Notes under the pieces: model-generated
What the model was told of the DNA's origin: nothing
Database searches by the model: none
Seen by the model: only the letters and a program-made list of their open reading frames with translations
Shown here: positions 4,027 through 60,540 of the stretch, piece after piece
Layout: each line of letters opens with the position of its first letter
How positions within the stretch are numbered: the stretch's first letter is position 1
Virus record (IMG/VR): IMGVR_UViG_3300017565_000002
Coordinates: 32,001 to 96,000 of that record
DNA: 64,000 nt
DNA from: a virus
Lineage: Duplodnaviria > Caudoviricetes
Direction: 5' to 3' (one strand)
Program-made: the position numbers and the translations under genes

Positions 4027-7000
4027 TTATATGACCCGTTCGGATATCATAACGTTACCCGTTGGTGCATCAATACCTACAGCTACAAACTTATTACCAC
4101 CATAGCACACCGATCTCCATTTGGTATCTACCGGAGTTGTTCTTAGTGTCCAGTTTAATCCATCAGGTGATGTCATTGCACGATTTCCTGTACCCGTATC
4201 GGAAACCGCTACAAATATCCCATTTCCAAATGCTACAGAGGTCCAACCATTATCGACTGGGTATGATACAGAGAACCACGTTATACCATCATATGAGGCC
4301 ATAACACGGTTGCCGGTTCCATTCCACGCCACCGACACAAATATTCCATTTCCATATGCTATTGAAGACCAGTAGTTATCGGCTGGGGTCGTTCCACTCA
4401 TCCAGGTTATACCATCCGCAGACACCATGACGCGATTTCCGCTTCCCGTTGTTGACACTGCCACAAACTTACCCGCTGCATGTGTCACATATGACCAAGC
4501 ATTACTCGATGCAGGCGTTCGAACAGTCCAATCTATACCGTCACTTGATGTCATAACCATATTTCCGGTTGTCGAAACGGATACCGCTACAAATAATCCT
4601 TCTCCGTAGGTTACACTATTCCAACTGCTAGATGGTGTTGAGCGTGGTATCCAAGTCTTACCATCCGTTGATGTCAAGACGTTGGCACCTGAGGTTTGAC
4701 CAACCGCTACGAATAAGCCATTACCAAAGCAGACAGATGTCCAATAAGAATTTGGGGTTGCCCTAGATGTCCAAGCAGATCCATCCGTAGAAGTCATAAT
4801 ATGCGTGGTCCCACCATCAGGTGATATTGCCACAAATAACCCAAGCCCATAGCATATAGCCGCCCAGCTGTTATTTGCCGATCCTGTCTTGGATAGCCAC
4901 ACAGCACCTGCCTGAACCATGGGCATTGCACGAACATATTCCGCGATTTTAAGTATTGAGTCTTTTTCCGATGCCTTCGTCGTACCTCGTTCTGCCAGTG
5001 TGTCAACTATCATTTTTCGAGCACCATCGACAGAGCTGAAATAATAGGATAAATTAGCTCCAGCATCAGATACCATGGCACAATATCCATTACCCGGAAC
5101 TCCAACTACTACAAATCTCCCAATAGCATAGCAGATACCCGTCCAACCCGGATTGAATGTATATTCAACAGGACCGGGTCTGACTGACCAGTTAATACCA
5201 TCAGGAGATACTAAAAGTTTATTCTCGTTTCCAATAGCTACAAACATCCCGTCACCATATGCAATATTAAGCCAAGTGTATGAGTTAGCCGATGAACGGT
5301 ATGTCCAACTAACACCATCCGATGACGTTATTATGTGGTTCCCCGTACCTGTACCAATTAGAGCTACGAACATTCCATTTCCATAGCACACAGCTCTAAG
5401 ATCAAGAGTATCCGGTGCAGTTTGTAATGTCCACGTCGTTCCGTCAGTTGATGTCCCAATTCGTTGGGTTGTCCCAGAGTTGTGGACCGCTACAAATATC
5501 CCATCACCAAAACAGATGGAATTCCAACCATATAAACTACCAGACGTTGTATTCGTCCAGTTCATGCCATCGGTAGATATTGACACGTCAGGACTTGAAC
5601 CATCCCGTGTCCCCACCGCTACAAACCTTCCATTCCCATAAGTCACGGATTGCCAATTTGTACTACTATCAATCGATGAGCTTAGGAACCAACCGGTGCC
5701 GGTATTCGACCACATGGCTCGACTGGAACCTGCTTGTCCGACTACAACAAATTTTCCTTTTGCATAGCAGATTGATTGCCATCCACTCGAAGAAGGTGTG
5801 GGTGTTGTTGACCAAGAATCGCCAGTGACTGACACCATCACAACGTTATTAGAACCCGATTGGATCGCAACGAATCTATTTTCTCCGTAAGTTATTGATT
5901 TCCAAGAGTGGTTGGCAGCCGTGGCACGCCTATCCCAACGTAAACCGGGTACTGATCCAAGTTTAAGAATGTCTTTAGCGTTTAGTGCAAGACCATCAGT
6001 TGGCGAGGCATTTGCACCTTTGCTGGTAAGGGCATCCCCTATACTAGTTTTACCTGCGTTGTCTCTAGTTAAAAACGATCCAAAGTCTGTTGAAGGTATA
6101 CTGGTCATAACTGAGTTTGCGGAACTCGGGCTATTTGCAACCGCCACAAATCTTCCGTTACCATAAACAATACCTTTCCAATTCAATGCGGTTGTACCGT
6201 CTCTTGGTGCAGGGAAAAGATACCACTCACCCGCAACCATAAGTGTAGTTGAATACATAACTTGATTGGCTGTATCATCACTTGATAAAGCAACCCATGA
6301 GTCACCACCAAAGGCAACCATATGCCATCTAACGTTTTCTGAACTTGCGACCATCCCGTTAGATGGCATATAGCTAGGTTCACTCAATATTAATACTTGA
6401 CTACCCAATCCCCCCGTTGAGGTTTCTACCGCTACAAACGATCCATTGCCAAAGGATATTGATGACCATGCTACTATGTTTGTACCAGTGAGTGTGGTGA
6501 TCTCCCAGTTTATACCGTCAGTTGACGACATAAGTCTCTTACCAGTGGCTTCCGTATACGTACCACTTGCAACTGCCACAAACCTTCCGTTTCCATATGC
6601 TACAGATTCCCATTGCCCGATAAAGGCGTCGCGTAATGTCCAATTGATACCGTCATATGACGTCATTACGGACTGTATATTGCTACTATAGCCTACTGCT
6701 ACATACATACCATTTCCATATACCACAGATGTCCACTGTTTAACATGTGTTAATGCCCCCGTCCAAGTAAATCCACTTGTAGAGGTCATGACATTGGCCA
6801 CGACGTTCGTGGGGTTAGATTCAGTTGCTAAAGCAACAAACTTCCCATCACCGAAACATATTGCTTTCCAATATCCCGTTGTCGTAGCATTTTGGTAAAT
6901 TTGTGGTGTTGTTCGTGCCGTCCAACTTTTACCGGTTGAAGACGTCATTACACCTGAGGTTGTCGTGGAACGTATGGCTACGAATGTATTCGCACCGAAT

Positions 7001-13750: not shown

Positions 13751-16700
13751 TTAAACGACGTTGAAATCTAAAGATTTGGTGACAGTGTTATATTGCATGG
13801 TCACACTTCCAATTGTCATCTTATTAGTTGCCGTCACTTCTGCAAATGTTGGTGTTGAAGTTGGTCCCAGCCCTACGTCTGTGGCGGTAGGTTTAAATCC
13901 TGTGTGGTACAACTCAACCCAAGGGTACCACATACCCCCACCACCCAATGGATTACCATGGCGCATATAATACTTATTATTACTAAACCCACTCACAAGT
14001 TGTGTTACCGTATCACCAATGTCACCTCTAAGAACTAATAGATTTCCGAATGCTAGGTTGGAACCAACGGGGCCATTCGTTACGACACTTGGTAATCGGT
14101 GGGAACCTGCTTCTGTTACTGTGTCCAAATCTGCTGTGGTTGCAAAATTATATCTACGCATGAATCCACCAGCGCTGACGCCATCCACCATGTCAGCATT
14201 TAAACCACTACCTGTTCCCATATTACCAGCATGCCAAACCTTATATGGTCCAACATATGCAGTCGATGGGGCTTTGTATACCTCAAGCCATTCAACTACA
14301 GTATCACCAGTACCGCCACTGTTGGGCACTATGGCAATATCAAAGTATTTTGCTTCTGGGTCAAATTTGTTATGATCACCCGTTGCCGTGGTGTTATAGC
14401 CAGAGATGACACCCTCGAAATATTGGGAGACACCGGCTGCTATTGTAGCACCTCTAGCAGCGAAATAGTTGTATGCGGATGCCTGATCAGTGTTTATCTC
14501 GGCGTAACTATTGTCAAGCGAAATTGCACCAATATACAGTAAACCAGTGCCGCTCTTTTTCTTTATCTTTGCTCTTAAGAAATAGTTACTTTCTGGATCA
14601 ATTGGAATCCTGGACATTATTTTAATCGTAGTATTGCCGCTTATAACAACACCTCTATCCGATTCACTATAGGATGCAGAACTACCTGACGCGATTGCAG
14701 TCCAATCATTATTACCCAAGACAAATCCGGTTGTTGTATGATAACGCTGTTTCCGTAGGTTAGCATCACCACTATCTACATAACCCTTATTCGCAATATC
14801 TGCATCCACCGCTGGTGATACAATCTGTGAACGCCCATTGCCGTCGCGTGTCATGACAGTATTGATTGTCGCGGTGGTTGAGTTGGCTAACCCACGCACC
14901 AAATCCGCATTTAGGCCACTACCCGTTCCCATATTACCCGCATGCCAGATTTTATTTGTCGGGCTTGCTGCACCCATATATAATTCTCTTGCACTAATCC
15001 ACTTATCCGTGCCGGATGAGAAGGTTGTGATACTATTATTGATTTCAGCATTTAAAACAGCAGACGTGTTTTGGTTAAAATAGCTCACTAATAATAAACT
15101 TTGGCCAGATGTAGCTTTGGAATATCCAGTGAATATGATACCCCTATTAAAGAAACCTGCTGCATAAGGCACTTTTATTCCAAAGTATTTGATACCACCA
15201 TAAGTACATGTCACAAGCGTCCACGCTTCGCCAACACTTTCTATTGTACCTACGTTAGTAGAAGTACCCGCAGCCCTAGTGGTAACAGTAACAGACGCGA
15301 TCCTATTACTAACACCTATCCCACCACGCAAAGCATGGAACGTTCCCATACAATAGTTTTCAGCAATATCGGTACCATCATATATTGGATGTAAAAGTAT
15401 GACAGATTGGAGATAGTCACTTGATTGTACGCCAATGAATTTATTGGTATGGTGATTATGATTCCCGCCACTCGTGGCATCTATGATTTGTAAATCTTTT
15501 GTCATGACTACAGAGCCATCTTTTTTGACAAAATCATTACCATGTAAGCCGTCCAACATATCGGCATTTAATCCACTACCAGCACCTACGTTTCCGTAGT
15601 GCCAGACTTTATCTGTACCTACATACAAATTCTGGTAGTCATACCACTTGGAAGCAGTAGGTGTGAATGTCGCGATACTATCATTAATTTCAGCATTCAG
15701 AACAGTTGATGTCGTCGTTCTGTAGTATGGAATTACTTTTAACGTCTCAGGAGCCGCTGAATAGACGTAACCCGTAAATGAATACCCATGGACAAGCGGA
15801 GATTCAAGATACGGAACCTTTAGTGCCATATAATTGACACCATTGTATACGCATGTAACCAATGTCCACTTTTCACTGACACTCTCAATAGCCGCTATAT
15901 TTAATTTGTATGAAGATCTGGTATTAATATTCACCATAGCAAGTCTATTGGCAGATCCTCCACCACCACGCGAACCGTAGATTGTACCAACACAATAGTT
16001 ATTGGTGGTAAGTTCAGTTAAATGGTAGCGTTGATGTAAAAGAATCACGTACTCCTCTCCCGATGCTAATGCAACAGGATCTAACCGTCTATTGGCATAA
16101 TATGCATATGCATCTAGTGGAATCTGGAGTCCGCCTGTCATTGCTACAGAACCATCTTTTTTGACAAGATCCGTACCATGAATTCCATCTACGAGATCGG
16201 CATTCAATCCACTACCCGGGCCTTGATTTGTTTCATTCCAGATCTTATACCATAATCCCCATGTATTGCTATTTACGGTTCCATTTCTATAGTACAAGGT
16301 TCCTTCATCTGTAAATGCGAGCTGATGGACTCTTGTGGCAGTACCATCACTATATGGTTTAAACGTTATAACCCCCGCATATCCTCCAGTGCCAGCTGGT
16401 AAATCGACAGTTGTTCTAGTTTTAAAATCAACCCTAAATTTCGAGTTTATACTAGTATCAGCAGGCAGCAGGTTAGTAACTCTGGTGTCTGGTACTCCTA
16501 ATGCAGGATTATTGGTTACAGTATCCAACCGTGCAATATCATCAACGGCTGACGGGGCCGAAACTTTGGATCGACCATTCCCATCACGCATCATGATTGT
16601 ATTGCTATTACCTGCCACTGTTGGCCCCATGTTAACTAATGTACCGGCATCTTTTGCATATCTTGATACGGTAGAATTATCTACAAGAGTCCACGTGAAT

Positions 16701-18349
16701 GATCCAATTGTGGGAGAAATAGAAATCCCCCAACCTTGAGACCAAGTGCTATAATTTGTGATCGTAAACCCTACAAATACATCTCTGATGACAACCTGTG
16801 GATATGCCCAAGCAGTGTCGGTTTCCCCGATATATATACAGCAATTAGTACCGTCATGGCCGAATCTAACCTTAAGATCGCCTTGTAAAGTTCGAGTTAT
16901 TGTATGACAGTTACAAGAAAGCCAGGCGGACGACGTACCATAGTTATAGCCAGATATATGAAACGTTGCTGTTTTGGATGGTGTTGAATAATCATATACA
17001 TCAACGGTCATCATTATCATATTGCTAGACCAGCTTACGGGAAGTTTTATCTTGATTACACCAGTTTCAGAAACGAGTACACTCGAATACATTCCTCCGC
17101 TAGGGTACGCTAAAAAGATACCGGGTCCCGGGCTAAGCCTTGAACCTACGGCGGGAGCCTCTAATGCTCCTGTCATCTTATCTCCGTCTAACTTAACTGC
17201 ATTTTCAAGCGTTGTACGAGGATCAGTCTTCCAGTCAGATTTTCCAGTAATGGCTTTGATTCGGTTTGCTAACCAACCCAGAATCGTCGTGAGAGTGCCG
17301 GTGTTAGAGCTTGGTGCTGTGCCATCACCTATTACGCGACTACCGATAACTGTATCAGTTGCGGCATCTGTTGTCTCTGTCAACTCGGAGAAACGTACAT
17401 TACCCCATGCAATACTACCGGCGACAGACCCAGCTTTCAAAAATTTATTATTATTCGTCGCACCTGTAGCAGGGACATGAAGATTTCCGTCTCCGGTTGG
17501 ATGTACATAGTTATTCGCACCAGCTGTAATACCAGCAAGTTTATCAAATTGTGCAGCCGTCATAAACCCTGCGGCAGCGCTACTAGCGGCAGCATGAGCA
17601 GTTCCACCTGCACCAACGTGAGTTATTGGAGCTTGTTGAACGTTATCGACATTTCCTAACCCCACATCTGCTTTACCGGGCTTATTAGCAGATGTATAGA
17701 AATCTGCCCATGCACCCCAGCTATTATCCCCCTGTGTTGCTGCCCTAACTTTCATCAGCGGAATCTTGTTATTGGCATAATCGTACGCAATTTGATATGA
17801 CGAGGTATACGCATTCATATTATAGGTAATAACACCAGAGATGGAGAATGGAAATCCTTTGGTGTTATCACCCAATGTATATGAAATTCCCTCTGGATAA
17901 GTGTTTGGGGCATCTGAAGCTGACTTTGCATTATAGCCAAGATTGCGATAAGGTTCTTGTTTGAGGTTATCAACATTTCCTAGCCCGACCTGTGCCTTCG
18001 TTACTTGGTTAGGGTTGTCTCTTCTAGCTGCATATGCAGAGATAGAAGTATCAACCGCAGTTTGTGTTACATAATTCTCGCTGTGCCAAGTGTTATTATG
18101 CACAACCAGTTGCTGAATCGTAGGAAGGTTTGCCCATGGGACCTTAGAGGTTCCATCCAATGGTGCAATGCCGTTTGCTGCACCAATCTTATTATTTATA
18201 GCAGCAATACTGGCACTTAATTGATTAAGCGTAATGGTTCCATCTCCGAGCTGTACATCAATCTGCTGTACCACGGCAAGGAGTTGGGTTTTTATACTCT
18301 CCAGTTCATGTAGTACGTGTGGTTTTGACACAATATGCACTCCTCTCAT
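13751..18349 (-). CDS. long tail fibre protein
   Basis: K(A)xVGLGNVDN repeats, four K(I/V)W...GSGLNAD joints, knob-like domains, late promoter upstream. Confidence 0.85.
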   Translation of the reverse strand: MRGVHIVSKPHVLHELESIKTQLLAVVQQIDVQLGDGTITLNQLSASIAAINNKIGAANGIAPLDGTSKVPWANLPTIQQLVVHNNTWHSENYVTQTAVDTSISAYAARRDNPNQVTKAQVGLGNVDNLKQEPYRNLGYNAKSASDAPNTYPEGISYTLGDNTKGFPFSISGVITYNMNAYTSSYQIAYDYANNKIPLMKVRAATQGDNSWGAWADFYTSANKPGKADVGLGNVDNVQQAPITHVGAGGTAHAAASSAAAGFMTAAQFDKLAGITAGANNYVHPTGDGNLHVPATGATNNNKFLKAGSVAGSIAWGNVRFSELTETTDAATDTVIGSRVIGDGTAPSSNTGTLTTILGWLANRIKAITGKSDWKTDPRTTLENAVKLDGDKMTGALEAPAVGSRLSPGPGIFLAYPSGGMYSSVLVSETGVIKIKLPVSWSSNMIMMTVDVYDYSTPSKTATFHISGYNYGTSSAWLSCNCHTITRTLQGDLKVRFGHDGTNCCIYIGETDTAWAYPQVVIRDVFVGFTITNYSTWSQGWGISISPTIGSFTWTLVDNSTVSRYAKDAGTLVNMGPTVAGNSNTIMMRDGNGRSKVSAPSAVDDIARLDTVTNNPALGVPDTRVTNLLPADTSINSKFRVDFKTRTTVDLPAGTGGYAGVITFKPYSDGTATRVHQLAFTDEGTLYYRNGTVNSNTWGLWYKIWNETNQGPGSGLNADLVDGIHGTDLVKKDGSVAMTGGLQIPLDAYAYYANRRLDPVALASGEEYVILLHQRYHLTELTTNNYCVGTIYGSRGGGGSANRLAMVNINTRSSYKLNIAAIESVSEKWTLVTCVYNGVNYMALKVPYLESPLVHGYSFTGYVYSAAPETLKVIPYYRTTTSTVLNAEINDSIATFTPTASKWYDYQNLYVGTDKVWHYGNVGAGSGLNADMLDGLHGNDFVKKDGSVVMTKDLQIIDATSGGNHNHHTNKFIGVQSSDYLQSVILLHPIYDGTDIAENYCMGTFHALRGGIGVSNRIASVTVTTRAAGTSTNVGTIESVGEAWTLVTCTYGGIKYFGIKVPYAAGFFNRGIIFTGYSKATSGQSLLLVSYFNQNTSAVLNAEINNSITTFSSGTDKWISARELYMGAASPTNKIWHAGNMGTGSGLNADLVRGLANSTTATINTVMTRDGNGRSQIVSPAVDADIANKGYVDSGDANLRKQRYHTTTGFVLGNNDWTAIASGSSASYSESDRGVVISGNTTIKIMSRIPIDPESNYFLRAKIKKKSGTGLLYIGAISLDNSYAEINTDQASAYNYFAARGATIAAGVSQYFEGVISGYNTTATGDHNKFDPEAKYFDIAIVPNSGGTGDTVVEWLEVYKAPSTAYVGPYKVWHAGNMGTGSGLNADMVDGVSAGGFMRRYNFATTADLDTVTEAGSHRLPSVVTNGPVGSNLAFGNLLVLRGDIGDTVTQLVSGFSNNKYYMRHGNPLGGGGMWYPWVELYHTGFKPTATDVGLGPTSTPTFAEVTATNKMTIGSVTMQYNTVTKSLDFNVV

Positions 18350-23600: not shown

Positions 23601-24417
23601 ATACATTCCTTCTATAGATAACCACAATTCGTTCATCCAAATCAGGAACTTTAAACCCATCTGTCAAAGGTGTAAATTCTGTTGGAACTACACCTGTAGT
23701 TGTACCTACTTTATAATGACGGATATTATTCAATGCCACATATCCTAATGGAACTGGCAATTGGATATAGTTAAACTGACTATTCTGCATCGGTGTCCGT
23801 TTGTAAGAACGAATATCCGGACATAGGACAAGTACCCCTGTATTACTACCTGCGCTAATATTCAGTACATATTGACCAGCTTGAATCGTGGGTTCTACAT
23901 AGTGGGGGATACCATTGATCGTCAAGATATAACCATAAGCTAAATCTGGGGAACTTGTAGGTGCAACCGCTACTGTATAATTCCCCGTAAATTGATTTAT
24001 AGATGTAATTTCTTTTAAGACAGTGACGACAACGTTTGTCAAATCCCCATTGACAATCAGAACCATGTGACTATGTCCCGTTACATATACTGAACACTGC
24101 GATGGTGGGATAGCTACACCATTGGAACTGACTTGAATAAATACCTTCGTCAGATTAATAAAGGTAAGTAATGGATAGACTTTCTCATGGATCAATGGAA
24201 ACCTACGATTGATTTGAATATTACGGAAAATTTCATGGTAGACGTATACTGTCGTCCTACCTATCGCAGGTATCTTTAACTCTCTTTCAAAATGAATAAA
24301 GTCTTTCTTATTTAAGGATGTATTATCGATTGTAATACGAATAAGTCCGTTATGCTTATTCAACTCTTCTTTTCGTTTCAGTGTCTTCTCATAGATATAC
24401 TTAAATAGGTTATTCAT
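20626..24417 (-). CDS. large baseplate-type structural protein with inserted LamG and beta-propeller domains
   Basis: LamG module (MTIEFW...LKDIRLW...LRAYWKL) followed by GxDG/propeller-like repeats; late promoter upstream. Confidence 0.65.
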   Translation of the reverse strand: MNNLFKYIYEKTLKRKEELNKHNGLIRITIDNTSLNKKDFIHFERELKIPAIGRTTVYVYHEIFRNIQINRRFPLIHEKVYPLLTFINLTKVFIQVSSNGVAIPPSQCSVYVTGHSHMVLIVNGDLTNVVVTVLKEITSINQFTGNYTVAVAPTSSPDLAYGYILTINGIPHYVEPTIQAGQYVLNISAGSNTGVLVLCPDIRSYKRTPMQNSQFNYIQLPVPLGYVALNNIRHYKVGTTTGVVPTEFTPLTDGFKVPDLDERIVVIYRRNVSKYEDLKHRYNLYRDYMSQFLSNTLPTAIKNHTPYLPNINENTPLATFNSEMVEASKDFYNVYREYLESKVAFQFTTHTVSYVIPITDSSFQYTIANMKRDPKELLFFNDGINTAPFKTNRLSNGQYQIYFNDNIIPTSPNCYSLNGTSGNITVPNYSAISLLGNMTIEFWIRRTGTVAGYETIISKRVSGGVCNYEVFLETGTKRIGFFSGGSIMTVNYAPPIGVFVHIAVATNSSGSTFYVNGEIVGTTIVPVGGQNTAPLTIGNMTTSQFLRADLKDIRLWDIDRSQNQIKAHMNYELKGNETSLRAYWKLTDTTSTIVNSVSGGLSGTASSGATSISSGVSLYKIPASIVSVDLGSTVEPYVESVKPETTTLVVGPSGKINDNIPIKVYETSTELMTGSLSGTIRDIVVGLDGYIYAVSTAGSNNLRKINPYTMATEVSVTVSTSPSSIMVLPDGNLLVGKASPYKISKYEPNNLTLVSESTEGDRIAQFMIPGNAGDFYVKGWTGADSYLHRVDANTFAILNSLTTFGSTIFSTVKGPNGKIFIGGTNKIWRLHPTTLAKEAENTETFGIYTQLVMSQMGDLYGIGSTTRDTFIKINSSTMVTQGISAAYDTLIADIMVGNDGNVYVCGGFPTARIAMYNPRTLAPEVWSGYYPYTLAAKRIIGGSDGTIYLAGGSTAVIRRFHPMTLTPAKKRKFTQLTPTTVENKGSIKQVTLASGDVGKNIHVTTTKFNKFICEPYSKNGLTELPTWASFISSNNIVAFIGGRLVPRERVYILNPFQYTILKGKTVLVTDLDTDVTTGETISVLLSSEVEMVEYNVALTAGSKIVTLTNKNYPFSTKYNLVFVDGKLIHPSNIQVIDSYRFSINVNSIHNMCILRKRVDFTYESSFYNLVDKWSAYLATLSVAEIESLLGVLNTVINVEDHRRTVNFADRHWFEILYEYCLKDRKELTIEDHIAIPEEIPNVLTSDGRIPISTYRTGSPRYKL

Positions 24418-24454
24418 ACTTCTCTCATACCTCCTATGACGTTCATGTCTCCAT

Positions 24455-24466
24455 TAATAGACTGTT
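24455..24466 (-). promoter_or_regulatory. late promoter motif AACA-N6-TA
   Basis: AACAGTCTATTA upstream of the 24417 start. Confidence 0.7.
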
Positions 24467-24494
24467 TTTAACACATTTATCTATACCCAATATT

Positions 24495-24809
24495 CCCCCT
24501 TAAATAGTATAAAATAATACTACTATAACTTAAATAATAAGGGGGCGCTAAGCCCCTTTTACTGGGACATAGAGGGGCGGACGGGCGGGATCTGTGAAGT
24601 GCAAGGAAGAAGAAAACTAGAAATCCCTAGAGATCTCCCCGAGAGGGGAGGAGCCCTTGACCCCCGTAGGGTAAAGAGGAAAAACAGCTCAGTGGTGAAG
24701 AAGGGTCTTGGAAGGGGTAGGACAGAGGACGAGCGAAGGCGAGACCCCCGTGTAGAGGGAGAGTACGTGTTCAAATAAATCTACCAGAAGAATGAGACAA
24801 TTCTTCTGG
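24495..24809. other. GC-rich, purine-skewed non-coding island with G-quadruplex motif and hairpins
   Basis: 24561-24770 is about 57% GC and 69% purine on + (hand count). Canonical G3+N1-7 x4 motif at 24564-24589. Hairpins at 24542-24556, 24635-24650 and 24784-24809. Confidence 0.6.
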
Positions 24810-24878
24810 ACTAAACTTTATTCTTTTAACCATTAGATAAGCAGAATGGATAGAACTTATCGAAATGAGGGATGAAAT

Positions 24879-25733
24879 ATGGGTAAGCTATTACAGGATT
24901 ATATAAAGCACAGAGAGATAGAAAGAGAATCTCAAAAGAGAAGAGAGAACTTCTTCTTCTTAGGAGGATTCATAAGTATCTTCTCGATTATTATTATTCT
25001 ATATGTGGCAATCTATTACGTAGAGCAGCATGATCCAACAAAAGATCTATACTTCTATCCATCGACAAAAACAGAAGCAAAGTCAGAAAAGGGAGAAGTC
25101 TATCAGATTGAAAATATATTCCCAGCTTATGATAACTACAACTTCTTCTTAGAGAAAAAAGCTGTGAACTATAAAACCATGTATGGATTAATTGGGAGAA
25201 AGTTTGATATTCATTCTTTCAGGGAATCCTATGAGTTTAGTATTATCAAAAATCCCGATAACGATATTGCAAATGGGTATGGTATTAAGAGATACTACAT
25301 CTACTCATTAATCAACGATAAAGATCCGGTAGCTATCTTATATGTAGAGAAAAGTGAAGGCATGATCATAGGTGTAACAAGTCCTTATTTGATTAATGCA
25401 GAGTTTAAGGATATGACACTCAATGGTTCTAACTTTACAGAGGTAACGAGATTGAATGATTTTATGATAGGAGAAGACAAGAAGCATTATACCTTTACCC
25501 ATTATGGGGGAGACTTATACTTAGCAACGACAGAAGGTAACGAGTATGGATATAAGAGTAATGATCCTTTAATCTATACAGCAACCATCTACAGTAAGAA
25601 GTCGATTAATTCAATCTTACAACTGATTGATTTCTATAAGGATAATGAAAACTACGTCACAGCATACTTTTCAATCTTCTTAAACGATAAGTATCAAGTT
25701 ATCTATCAAACACTCGTCAAAGAGAAAGGGTGA
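24879..25733 (+). CDS. membrane-anchored hypothetical protein
   Basis: Single N-terminal TM (FFFLGGFISIFSIIIILYVAIYY); GAGGG RBS; variant promoter AACC-N6-TA at 24828-24839. Confidence 0.75.
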   Translation: MGKLLQDYIKHREIERESQKRRENFFFLGGFISIFSIIIILYVAIYYVEQHDPTKDLYFYPSTKTEAKSEKGEVYQIENIFPAYDNYNFFLEKKAVNYKTMYGLIGRKFDIHSFRESYEFSIIKNPDNDIANGYGIKRYYIYSLINDKDPVAILYVEKSEGMIIGVTSPYLINAEFKDMTLNGSNFTEVTRLNDFMIGEDKKHYTFTHYGGDLYLATTEGNEYGYKSNDPLIYTATIYSKKSINSILQLIDFYKDNENYVTAYFSIFLNDKYQVIYQTLVKEKG

Positions 25734-31471: not shown

Positions 31472-32212
31472 TTGGACATATTACCATACTTTGGCTCGGG
31501 AGATGAAGAAATGATACCTATATTTTCAGAACCATCCAATCATACTACGTATCGAAATACATCAGGTGTAGTTGTACCTTCAGTTACAAGCATTATTCAT
31601 ATGATAAATAAACCCGAATTGGTACACTGGGCTAACTCTTTAGGGTTTAAGAGGAAGAGTGTTAGTAAAGAGTTAGACGTATCTGCTTATATTGGTGATA
31701 TTACACACAAGTTGGTGGAAATCTATACTACAACGGGTAAATACTCATATGATATTATAGATCGCAAAGGTCCAGTCGAGAGATTAGGAATTAAAAATGC
31801 ATTCCTATCCTTTCTCCAGATGTATAAGACCGAGCACCCTCATATCGAAATTCATGATACAGAAGTTCAATTGGCCGGAGAGAAATTTGGTGGGACAACT
31901 GACCTTTTGGCTAAATATCATGGTAAGTTTACTATAGGAGATTACAAGACTAGCAAAGGATTCTATCCTACGATGTTTTTACAAATTGCAGGATACGATC
32001 TTCTACTCCGAGAGCTTGGATTATTTAAAGCCGAGCAATACGTCGTGTTCTTGTTAGATAAACGAGATGGTAGACCTGCCAAGATAAAGATATGTGACGA
32101 TAAAGATCAGATGCAGCTATATCGGAAGTGTTTTAAGACTTTGGTCGATTTCTATTACGATTGGTATATGATTAATCAACGCTACTGGGGTAAAGACCTC
32201 CTTGTTAAATAG
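31472..32212 (+). CDS. PD-(D/E)XK (RecB/lambda-exo-like) exonuclease; true start may be 31511
   Basis: PSVTSI, GTTD, DYKT and QxxxY motifs. Confidence 0.85.
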   Translation: MDILPYFGSGDEEMIPIFSEPSNHTTYRNTSGVVVPSVTSIIHMINKPELVHWANSLGFKRKSVSKELDVSAYIGDITHKLVEIYTTTGKYSYDIIDRKGPVERLGIKNAFLSFLQMYKTEHPHIEIHDTEVQLAGEKFGGTTDLLAKYHGKFTIGDYKTSKGFYPTMFLQIAGYDLLLRELGLFKAEQYVVFLLDKRDGRPAKIKICDDKDQMQLYRKCFKTLVDFYYDWYMINQRYWGKDLLVK

Positions 32213-40472: not shown

Positions 40473-40484
40473 AACAGATGAATA
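40473..40484 (+). promoter_or_regulatory. late promoter motif AACA-N6-TA preceding a non-coding unit
   Basis: AACAGATGAATA; the predicted +1 (40484) is the first base of the first stem. Confidence 0.6.
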
Positions 40485-40642
40485 TCCGATTGGGCCGCGC
40501 GGATTGCGGGGCTAGTTTCGGATACAGCTTAGGGTATTATACCTCGGTCGTTGAGAAGATTGGCCGATCGAGGTATTTACCCGACCCCAAACCCCAATAT
40601 CTCCCCATACGCCCGCTCTCAGCGTATGGGGAAACTACTTTT
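40484..40642 (+). ncRNA. candidate novel structured ncRNA (~155 nt)
   Basis: About 56% GC (hand count). Three stem-loops (40484-40523, 40532-40582, 40602-40632) and a C-rich linker; no credible ORF. Confidence 0.6.
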
Positions 40643-60208: not shown

Positions 60209-60220
60209 AACAATTTATTG
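60209..60220 (+). promoter_or_regulatory. late promoter motif AACA-N6-TG preceding a non-coding unit
   Basis: AACAATTTATTG, 11 nt after the ligase stop. Confidence 0.6.
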
Positions 60221-60540
60221 AATCTGAATCTTAGTCGAAGGGTCGCCAGAGGCGATTTTGGATCAAATCTCTTCGTACTCATAATCGCTTTACCGTAGAC
60301 GGAACTGACTGTGCATGTGCGCGGCGGCGAACAATGGGCTAGGGATGTGAAGAGTGCAGGTTGTTTTACCATCGGCCTTGTACTGAAGAATTCCAACGCT
60401 CGGTTTGCATTCTGTCATTTGAGGGAGAGCTGGAGACTGATACGGAGGTACGATCAAACAATTCCAAATGGACCCTGTTTGACTAAGGTGATAAGATCAG
60501 TAACGGACTGAGCCATAAAGGTGCTCAGTCCGTTATCTTT
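60220..60540 (+). ncRNA. candidate novel structured ncRNA (~320 nt)
   Basis: About 48% GC (hand count). 15-bp long-range stem 60230-60244 / 60471-60487, internal stems, perfect 13-bp terminal hairpin 60501-60535. Confidence 0.65.

Follow-up and report, generated by a model that had tools for sequence, protein, structure and literature searches.

The GC-rich, purine-skewed island at positions 24561-24809 of the analysed window (64,000 nt, positions 32,001 to 96,000 of the 215,803-nt IMG/VR jumbo phage record G000) is one of five copies of a modular unit found in three related uncultured soil giant phages. Our preferred reading, put forward tentatively, is that it represents a lineage-specific late non-coding unit of ~200-250 nt in an AR9-like soil jumbo clade, which would make a weakly structured polypurine RNA. 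The original prediction offered a replication origin, a packaging or terminus site, or a structured RNA for this island. Its view of a distinct, probably transcribed non-coding element is upheld by a unit that is duplicated, syntenic and modular, while a structured RNA, a conserved G-quadruplex and a tie to the skew are not borne out. To our knowledge, both replication origins and non-coding RNAs are almost unknown in AR9/phiKZ-like jumbo phages.

The genome GC content of G000 is 41.2%. Its record ends (1-123 and 215681-215803) overlap by 123 nt, annotated in IMG/VR as a 'direct terminal repeat', so that the coordinate origin of the record is uninformative on the true genome ends; the record may be a circular assembly. 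A cell-wall lysin suggests a Gram-positive host for these phages. Relation to Bacillus phage AR9, for which promoter consensus sequences have been described (late, AACA-N6-TA/G; PMC5312081), was assessed through the promoter motifs: upstream of G000 genes, the late motif AACA-N6-T[AG] is enriched 4.8-fold and the AT-rich early-promoter motif about ten-fold.

Copy A lies at ~56.6 kb of G000 within a gene-free intergenic region (window 24418-24878), and the island at 24561-24809 is ORF-free, as had been proposed. Its position at a switch of gene orientation is also as described: it adjoins the start of a 24.8-kb minus-strand structural block, whose first gene (1263 aa, start 24417) encodes a tail-fibre-like protein with a Laminin_G_3 domain, and a plus-strand gene begins at 24879. 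With regard to composition, the reported 69% purine stands. The stretch 24565-24780 (G 37, A 32, C 18, T 13%) has 55% GC and the best 200-nt window 57%; the surrounding genome is richer in GC than the high-30s percentage estimated by eye, and it is the local flanks that lie at 32-39%. At 57%, against a genome mean of 41.2% with an SD of 3.9%, the island is the top-GC 200-nt window across all of G000 and thus far beyond chance. No sigma-70-type promoter was found within the intergenic region, and ARAGORN placed neither a tRNA nor a tmRNA in the island. Elsewhere in the window (18114-18184, plus strand) the same program called a tRNA-Leu with anticodon tag, antisense inside a 1532-aa tail-fibre ORF (13751-18349, minus strand); this call is probably spurious, unless a tRNA-like sequence is embedded there. 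The parts of copy A and its immediate neighbours, in window coordinates, are as follows.

24455-24466, minus strand: AR9-type late promoter motif AACA-GTCTAT-TA for the divergent 1263-aa gene, in the neighbourhood and outside the unit.
24539-24560, unstranded: GC hairpin GGGGC-loop-GCCCC, flanked on either side by T/A-rich tails and 11 nt ahead of the 5' box.
24572-24591, plus strand: 5' box GAGGGGCGGACGGGCGGGAT, family signature GAGSSGCGR-N3-8-SGGGAY.
24592-24632, plus strand: purine tract R1, 41 nt, 71% purine, holding AAGGAAGAAGAAA in common with the G001 copy.
24633-24649, plus strand: conserved hairpin motif ATCTCCCCGAGAGGGGA, CCC(C)-loop-GGGG, found in all five copies.
24650-24743, plus strand: purine tract R2, 94 nt, 71% purine, including the part most divergent from copy B.
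24744-24780, plus strand: 3' box, a C-run ACCCCC followed by a G-run, within a 3' block from ~24715 that matches copy B.
24784-24809, unstranded: closing 10-bp hairpin with T-rich tails in both directions.
24879-25733, plus strand: downstream 284-aa gene, with an N-terminal hydrophobic segment.

The individual sequence elements described originally were all recovered: the canonical G-quadruplex motif GGG-N7-GGGG-N5-GGG-N1-GGG at 24564-24589 on the plus strand, the GNRA hairpin CTCCCC-GAGA-GGGGAG at 24635-24650, the direct repeat GACCCCCGT at 24659 and 24743, and the perfect 10-bp stem of the closing hairpin. The direct repeat is found in copy A only, and R2 of this copy holds an additional, copy-specific hairpin, ACCC-CCGTA-GGGT. 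The closing hairpin likely marks the 3' end or terminator of the unit. The upstream hairpin at 24539-24560, which has TTTT after its plus-strand side, stands where other copies carry the late promoter; in a terminator scan both hairpins scored as terminator-like on the minus strand only. The 284-aa protein encoded downstream has no Pfam or PHROG match, and as no promoter motif of its own was found for the gene, it may rely on read-through from the purine-rich unit.

A search of G000 itself revealed copy B at 201727-201927 on the minus strand, 145 kb from copy A. The two copies are 87% identical and share the same ends: no difference occurs over the 5' 66 nt and a single one over the 3' ~65 nt, which include the block that begins near 24715 in copy A, and the middle ~75 nt have diverged, with indels. 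Relative G002 (246.7 kb) contains two copies, a and b, on opposite strands, and relative G001 (246.9 kb) contains one, which was found only by a scan for non-coding purine-rich islands. Altogether, five copies occur in 3 of 19 related records, and the signature of the 5' box has exactly five matches in these 19 records and none in the controls. Protein searches gave P0002 (70%) and P0004-P0006 (55-61%) as the closest relatives. Searches further afield gave little: blastn of 50,697 phage records with the units of G000 and G002 as queries returned no match, exact and degenerate box patterns across IMG/VR were found in G002 only, and GTDB genome contigs searched with the neighbouring protein family yielded nothing. 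The 51 matches to the box pattern in metagenomes were all chance hits in GC-rich DNA or a tRNA. A tRNA-like reading of the 5' box, whose reverse complement resembles a tRNA 3' end (metagenome locus L051), was rejected as the likeness extends to no T-arm, and purine islands of G016-G018 considered as analogues were either coding or merely A-rich.

All five copies share the same order of parts, namely the 5' box, R1, the CCC(C)/GGGG hairpin, R2, and a C-run box followed by a G-run. The 5' box is G/C-rich and 19-20 nt long, R1 spans 39-79 nt with 69-85% purine, R2 spans 43-118 nt with 71-82% purine, and the central hairpin follows the pattern (A)TC(T)CCC(C)-loop-GGGG(A). Purine content amounts to 69-76% over whole units and reaches 0.83 in 150-nt windows, and the copies are the top purine-rich non-coding windows in all three genomes. 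The primary sequence of the tracts drifts between lineages, from G-rich in G000 to A-rich in the other two genomes; what persists across the lineages is the strand-specific purine excess, the 5' box and the hairpin motif. Within copy b of G002 (L060:1566-1699), a 51-nt stretch is directly repeated (71% identity, spacing 83 nt), which shows that this copy was enlarged by internal duplication of a purine tract together with a GGGTTAA word.

The framing by promoters and terminators is likewise shared, if less uniformly. The motif [A/G]ACA-N6-T[A/G] lies upstream of the 5' box in four of the five copies, as AACA in G002b and G001 and as GACA in copy B and G002a, with a predicted start 0-26 nt before the box; the background for this motif is 0.71 per kb per strand, or ~0.03 per copy. 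Copy A has no AACA-N6-TA/G and only a CACA-N6-TA at -106, and its transcribed strand is therefore judged from the family as a whole. Three copies end in a hairpin (the 10-bp hairpin of copy A and those of both G002 copies), and clear intrinsic terminators on the sense strand follow both G002 copies. Copies B and G001 have no terminator between the unit and the next gene. An AR9-type early promoter, TATATATTAT, serves the next gene after copies B, G002a and G001. From this arrangement we infer that the unit is transcribed, and from which strand; the mode of action is inferred in turn.

The search for positional homologues in related phages, which had been suggested as a check, placed the unit at both loci in G002. 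By protein synteny, G002b occupies the locus of copy A, between the start of the tail-fibre block and a homologue of the 284-aa protein (39% identity) in the same relative orientation; on one side G002 carries ~6 kb of additional genes, on the other two additional genes. The locus of copy B is occupied by G002a, which immediately follows the 564-aa virion gene. G001 has the unit at neither of these loci, its single copy occupying a third, and the unit is also missing after the 564-aa gene in four further relatives, where the terminator runs straight to the early promoter. As it is lacking in closer as well as in more distant relatives, the unit is accessory. Different small genes follow the 564-aa gene in G000 and G002, which makes this locus a gene-replacement hotspot. 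In relatives without the unit (L081-L085, ~4800-5600, plus strand), the gene at this place starts with ...LFTDGSS... and looks RNase H-like.

Identity between the copies follows the genome rather than the locus. Paralogues are 87% (A and B) and 82% (G002a and G002b) identical, and positional orthologues 63% (A and G002b) and 62% (B and G002a); all cross-genome pairs are ~60% identical, 3-7 SD above composition-matched shuffles. Since paralogues are far more alike than positional orthologues, the copies have evolved in concert. This indicates that two old loci have been kept, and homogenised inside each genome, and it argues for function and against decaying junk.

What has been kept is not a fold. 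The idea of a structured RNA did not survive comparison with shuffled sequences: minimum free energies are no better than those of shuffles, both for the 291-nt unit (z = -0.89 on the plus and -1.60 on the minus strand) and for halves of four copies (z between -1.08 and +1.61). No pair has changed on both sides in alignments A3 and A7, a covariation test that is powerless with five sequences from three genomes, and MAFFT did not set the modules of the copies in register. The sole helix common to all copies is the invariant CCC/GGG stem, and since its loop varies (GAGA, GATA, GAA, GACA), the GNRA loop is not conserved. Rfam 15 gave no match anywhere in the window at gathering thresholds, and with permissive filters over 24300-25000 the best overlaps with the island scored 10-16 bits against thresholds of 37-376 (E >= 2.5). 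Shine-Dalgarno (SD)-like sites occur at 1.4-4.0 per 100 nt versus a background of 0.43 (3-9 times), a frequency equal to that in composition-matched shuffles. A role as a sponge for the phage's C-rich sRNA or rod RNA was rejected, as duplex energies equal those of shuffles and cross-genome pairs are as good as those within a genome; neither of the two other candidate RNAs of the phage showed specific pairing with the unit.

Among alternatives to a late polypurine RNA, the unit could act as an R-loop element, where a purine- and G-rich RNA would stay hybridised to its C/T-rich template and prime DNA synthesis or seed recombination, with the copies forming an inverted, homogenised pair of origins. 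We consider this unlikely, though it accounts for several features. In a hybrid score (nearest-neighbour RNA:DNA minus DNA:DNA energy, with parameters after Sugimoto 1995 and SantaLucia 1998), copies A and B take the first two places among the 200-nt windows of both G000 strands (-5.8 and -5.6 SD, versus -3.7 SD for the window that follows), the G002 copies rank first and third, and the G001 copy second in their own genomes, but this energy ranking mostly restates base composition. In G000 and G002, G-clusters coincide with the predicted 5' end, but they are lost from the 5' box of the G001 copy. G000 and G002 each keep an inverted pair of copies alike, and priming by G-rich transcripts is documented (PMC3488243, PMC4176368, PMC12599619). 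Against this, the promoter motif belongs to the late class, the conserved central palindrome would be left without a role, and relatives that share the gene order do without the unit, which is unexpected of an essential origin, though the origins of phage T4 are dispensable as well. Nor does the cumulative GC skew turn at either copy: its minimum lies at ~60-62 kb and its maximum at ~168 kb, with the copies at 56.6 and 201.8 kb. The minimum lies 4-5 kb from copy A, where gene orientation finally switches, and copy B is at no extreme; the turn tracks gene orientation and not the purine-rich unit.

Alternatively, the copies could be a neutral or selfish repeat, a cassette without function that illegitimate recombination has carried between promoter and terminator regions, its copies being kept alike by gene conversion during recombination-dependent replication. 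The patchy distribution, with three loci in three genomes and other relatives without the unit, would fit such a cassette, as would its residence at variable intergenic sites, with a terminator on one side and an early promoter on the other, and the mosaic pattern of identity between copies A and B. We nevertheless hold it to be improbable. Both loci have been kept in G000 and G002 although the flanking proteins are only ~40-60% identical, and the 5' box, the hairpin and the purine skew have been kept in three lineages whose other intergenic DNA has no similarity. Terminal inverted repeats are absent, and no TnpA, TnpB or reverse transcriptase is encoded. An origin from a diversity-generating retroelement (DGR), a retron or a transposon (MITE, IS200/605 PATE) was rejected on similar grounds: G000 has no match to PF00078, PF07282 or PF01797, G002 none to PF07282 or PF01797, and the differences between copies A and B are not limited to adenines.

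A third alternative places the function in the DNA itself, with the palindrome TCCCC-GAA-GGGGA, its variants and the 5' box binding a phage protein, for example as a module-boundary insulator or regulatory site. What is kept in the hairpin stem is its sequence, with no compensatory changes; in G002 it forms a perfect palindrome at the DNA level, and copies are situated at boundaries between late and early genes. Such a cis element would leave unexplained 150-200 nt of conserved, strand-specific purine richness as well as the framing by promoter and terminator on one strand, and it is in our estimation quite improbable.

That the four-run G-quadruplex of the 5' box, as DNA or RNA, is the functional core is very improbable. 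Copy A does contain the canonical motif, and the boxes of G000 and G002 keep four G-runs with 1-2-nt loops and run lengths of 4-2-3-3 or 4-3-2-3, so that a two-tetrad or bulged RNA quadruplex would be possible there. However, the canonical motif is unique to copy A among the five: in copy B the first run (24564-24566 in copy A) is GG instead of GGG, the G002 boxes have three runs of three or more G, and the G001 box is without any four-run pattern. The genome-wide count is also at chance level, with two canonical motifs in G000 versus a mean of 0.63, and up to 4, in shuffles preserving local composition; the motif is therefore no more than local G-richness predicts. The other canonical motif of G000 (window 40585-40614, minus strand) is antisense to the C-rich stretch of the post-helicase candidate late sRNA.

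A small, highly basic peptide is hardly credible: an open GTG-initiated frame of 59 codons does cross the island (24599-24778) and the G001 copy has a TTG-initiated one of 49 codons for an extremely basic, K/R-rich peptide (G001:C1:76874-77023, or L102:16874-17023, plus strand), but the frame runs for only 11 codons in copy B, where the start region is identical, is missing from both G002 copies, and begins at a GTG without convincing ribosome-binding site, purine-only codons yield K/R/E/G-rich open frames by default, and no ORF is conserved among the copies on either strand, nor is any antisense ORF common to them. As neither frame is conserved in other copies, both are probably by-products of purine codons.

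Returning to the late polypurine RNA, the purine-rich strand would most likely be transcribed by the phage's late (non-virion) RNA polymerase. The RNA would begin at the G/C-rich box, carry the small CCCC/GGGG hairpin midway and end at the C-run box and hairpin; with 69-76% purine, and ~80% in its richest stretches, it should be weakly structured. Selection would then act on strand-specific purine richness together with three short sequence motifs. An RNA made only of purines can form no Watson-Crick helices with itself and contains neither start nor stop codons. Purine richness could in this way hold the RNA unfolded and free of such codons. Most simply, selection would have favoured an RNA that remains single-stranded and is not translated. 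As the selected traits are purine richness and three short motifs, a role as a single-stranded platform is probable, and we favour a binding platform on this compositional basis. In one version, the RNA would act in trans as a decoy that binds a protein, the 30S subunit or a C-rich RNA. In another, it would be a long polypurine 5' leader that stabilises a read-through late mRNA, for which SP82 and STAB-SD provide a precedent: in B. subtilis and phage SP82, mRNA is stabilised by leaders of polypurine or SD-like sequence, according to PMC7509114 and the references given in PMC3997798. Such a leader is plausible only for copies B and G001, where late read-through could enter an otherwise early gene, and in AR9, genes expressed continuously are known to be preceded by promoters of both classes (PMC5312081).

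The five copies form a small, testable family with clear boundaries and motifs, and comparing them corrected the tempting reading of a G-quadruplex. What they conserve is composition and three short motifs rather than a fold, which is unusual for a conserved non-coding element of a phage. If the RNA is made, it would open a way into how these phages control late genes or take over the host. If R-loops form, the copies would point to the first origin-like sites of the AR9/phiKZ-like group, and an RNA acting in this way would be a bacterial-virus counterpart of the paired herpesvirus oriLyt. A nearly structure-free polypurine RNA gene in two inverted, concerted copies, acting through its unpaired purine strand, via persistent R-loops in replication or recombination or via titration of a host factor, would constitute a new class of phage RNA, a prospect that we regard as decidedly unlikely.

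Compared with known systems, the unit matches no described family. It resembles AR9 late units in having the same promoter motif, exact or as GACA, upstream of four of five copies, a motif enriched upstream of genes in G000. It differs from them in that its putative product is no mRNA and copy A is without the motif. The phage's other candidate late units (window 40473-40642 and 60209-60540) are similarly composed of a late promoter, an ORF-free, GC-richer unit, a hairpin and an early promoter, yet the purine unit lacks a fold, is skewed towards purines, occurs in duplicate and has no sequence relationship to them. After the helicase homologue in G002, a counterpart of the unit at 40473-40642 occupies the corresponding position with a different sequence (G002:C1:~97900-98190, minus strand, in L090); it starts with AACA-AGTAAT-TG and has the anti-SD-like word CCTCCC ahead of its terminator hairpin.

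With ColE1 RNA II, T4 oriF/oriG, mitochondrial CSB II and EBV/KSHV oriLyt, the unit has in common a G- or purine-rich transcript strand that favours an RNA:DNA hybrid after a promoter (PMC3488243, PMC4176368, PMC12599619), and like the paired oriLyt of EBV and KSHV it occurs as two inverted, near-identical copies per genome in G000 and G002. Unlike R-loop-primed origins, it is without an identified unwinding element or initiator sites, gives no skew signal, is not conserved across relatives and has lost its G clustering in one lineage. Sponge RNAs are another point of reference, with RosA and RsaI as G-rich sponge RNAs of Firmicutes, and CsrB/RsmZ-type RNAs as protein sponges. The unit is non-coding as they are, with many exposed G-rich words that could titrate C-rich sRNAs or a protein, but it has no repeated motif above composition, and its pairing with the phage's C-rich candidate sRNA equals that of shuffles.

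Finally, polypurine or STAB-SD stabilisers are described for SP82 early RNA, cryIIIA and aprE (Hue et al. 1995, Agaisse & Lereclus 1996, as cited in PMC7509114 and PMC3997798). The phage unit is likewise purine-rich, SD-like and poor in start codons, and in copies B and G001 no terminator precedes the next gene. Its SD-like words equal the expectation from composition and it is self-terminated in three copies. In contrast to these stabilisers, the phage unit is ten to twenty times longer and is built around conserved boxes and a hairpin.
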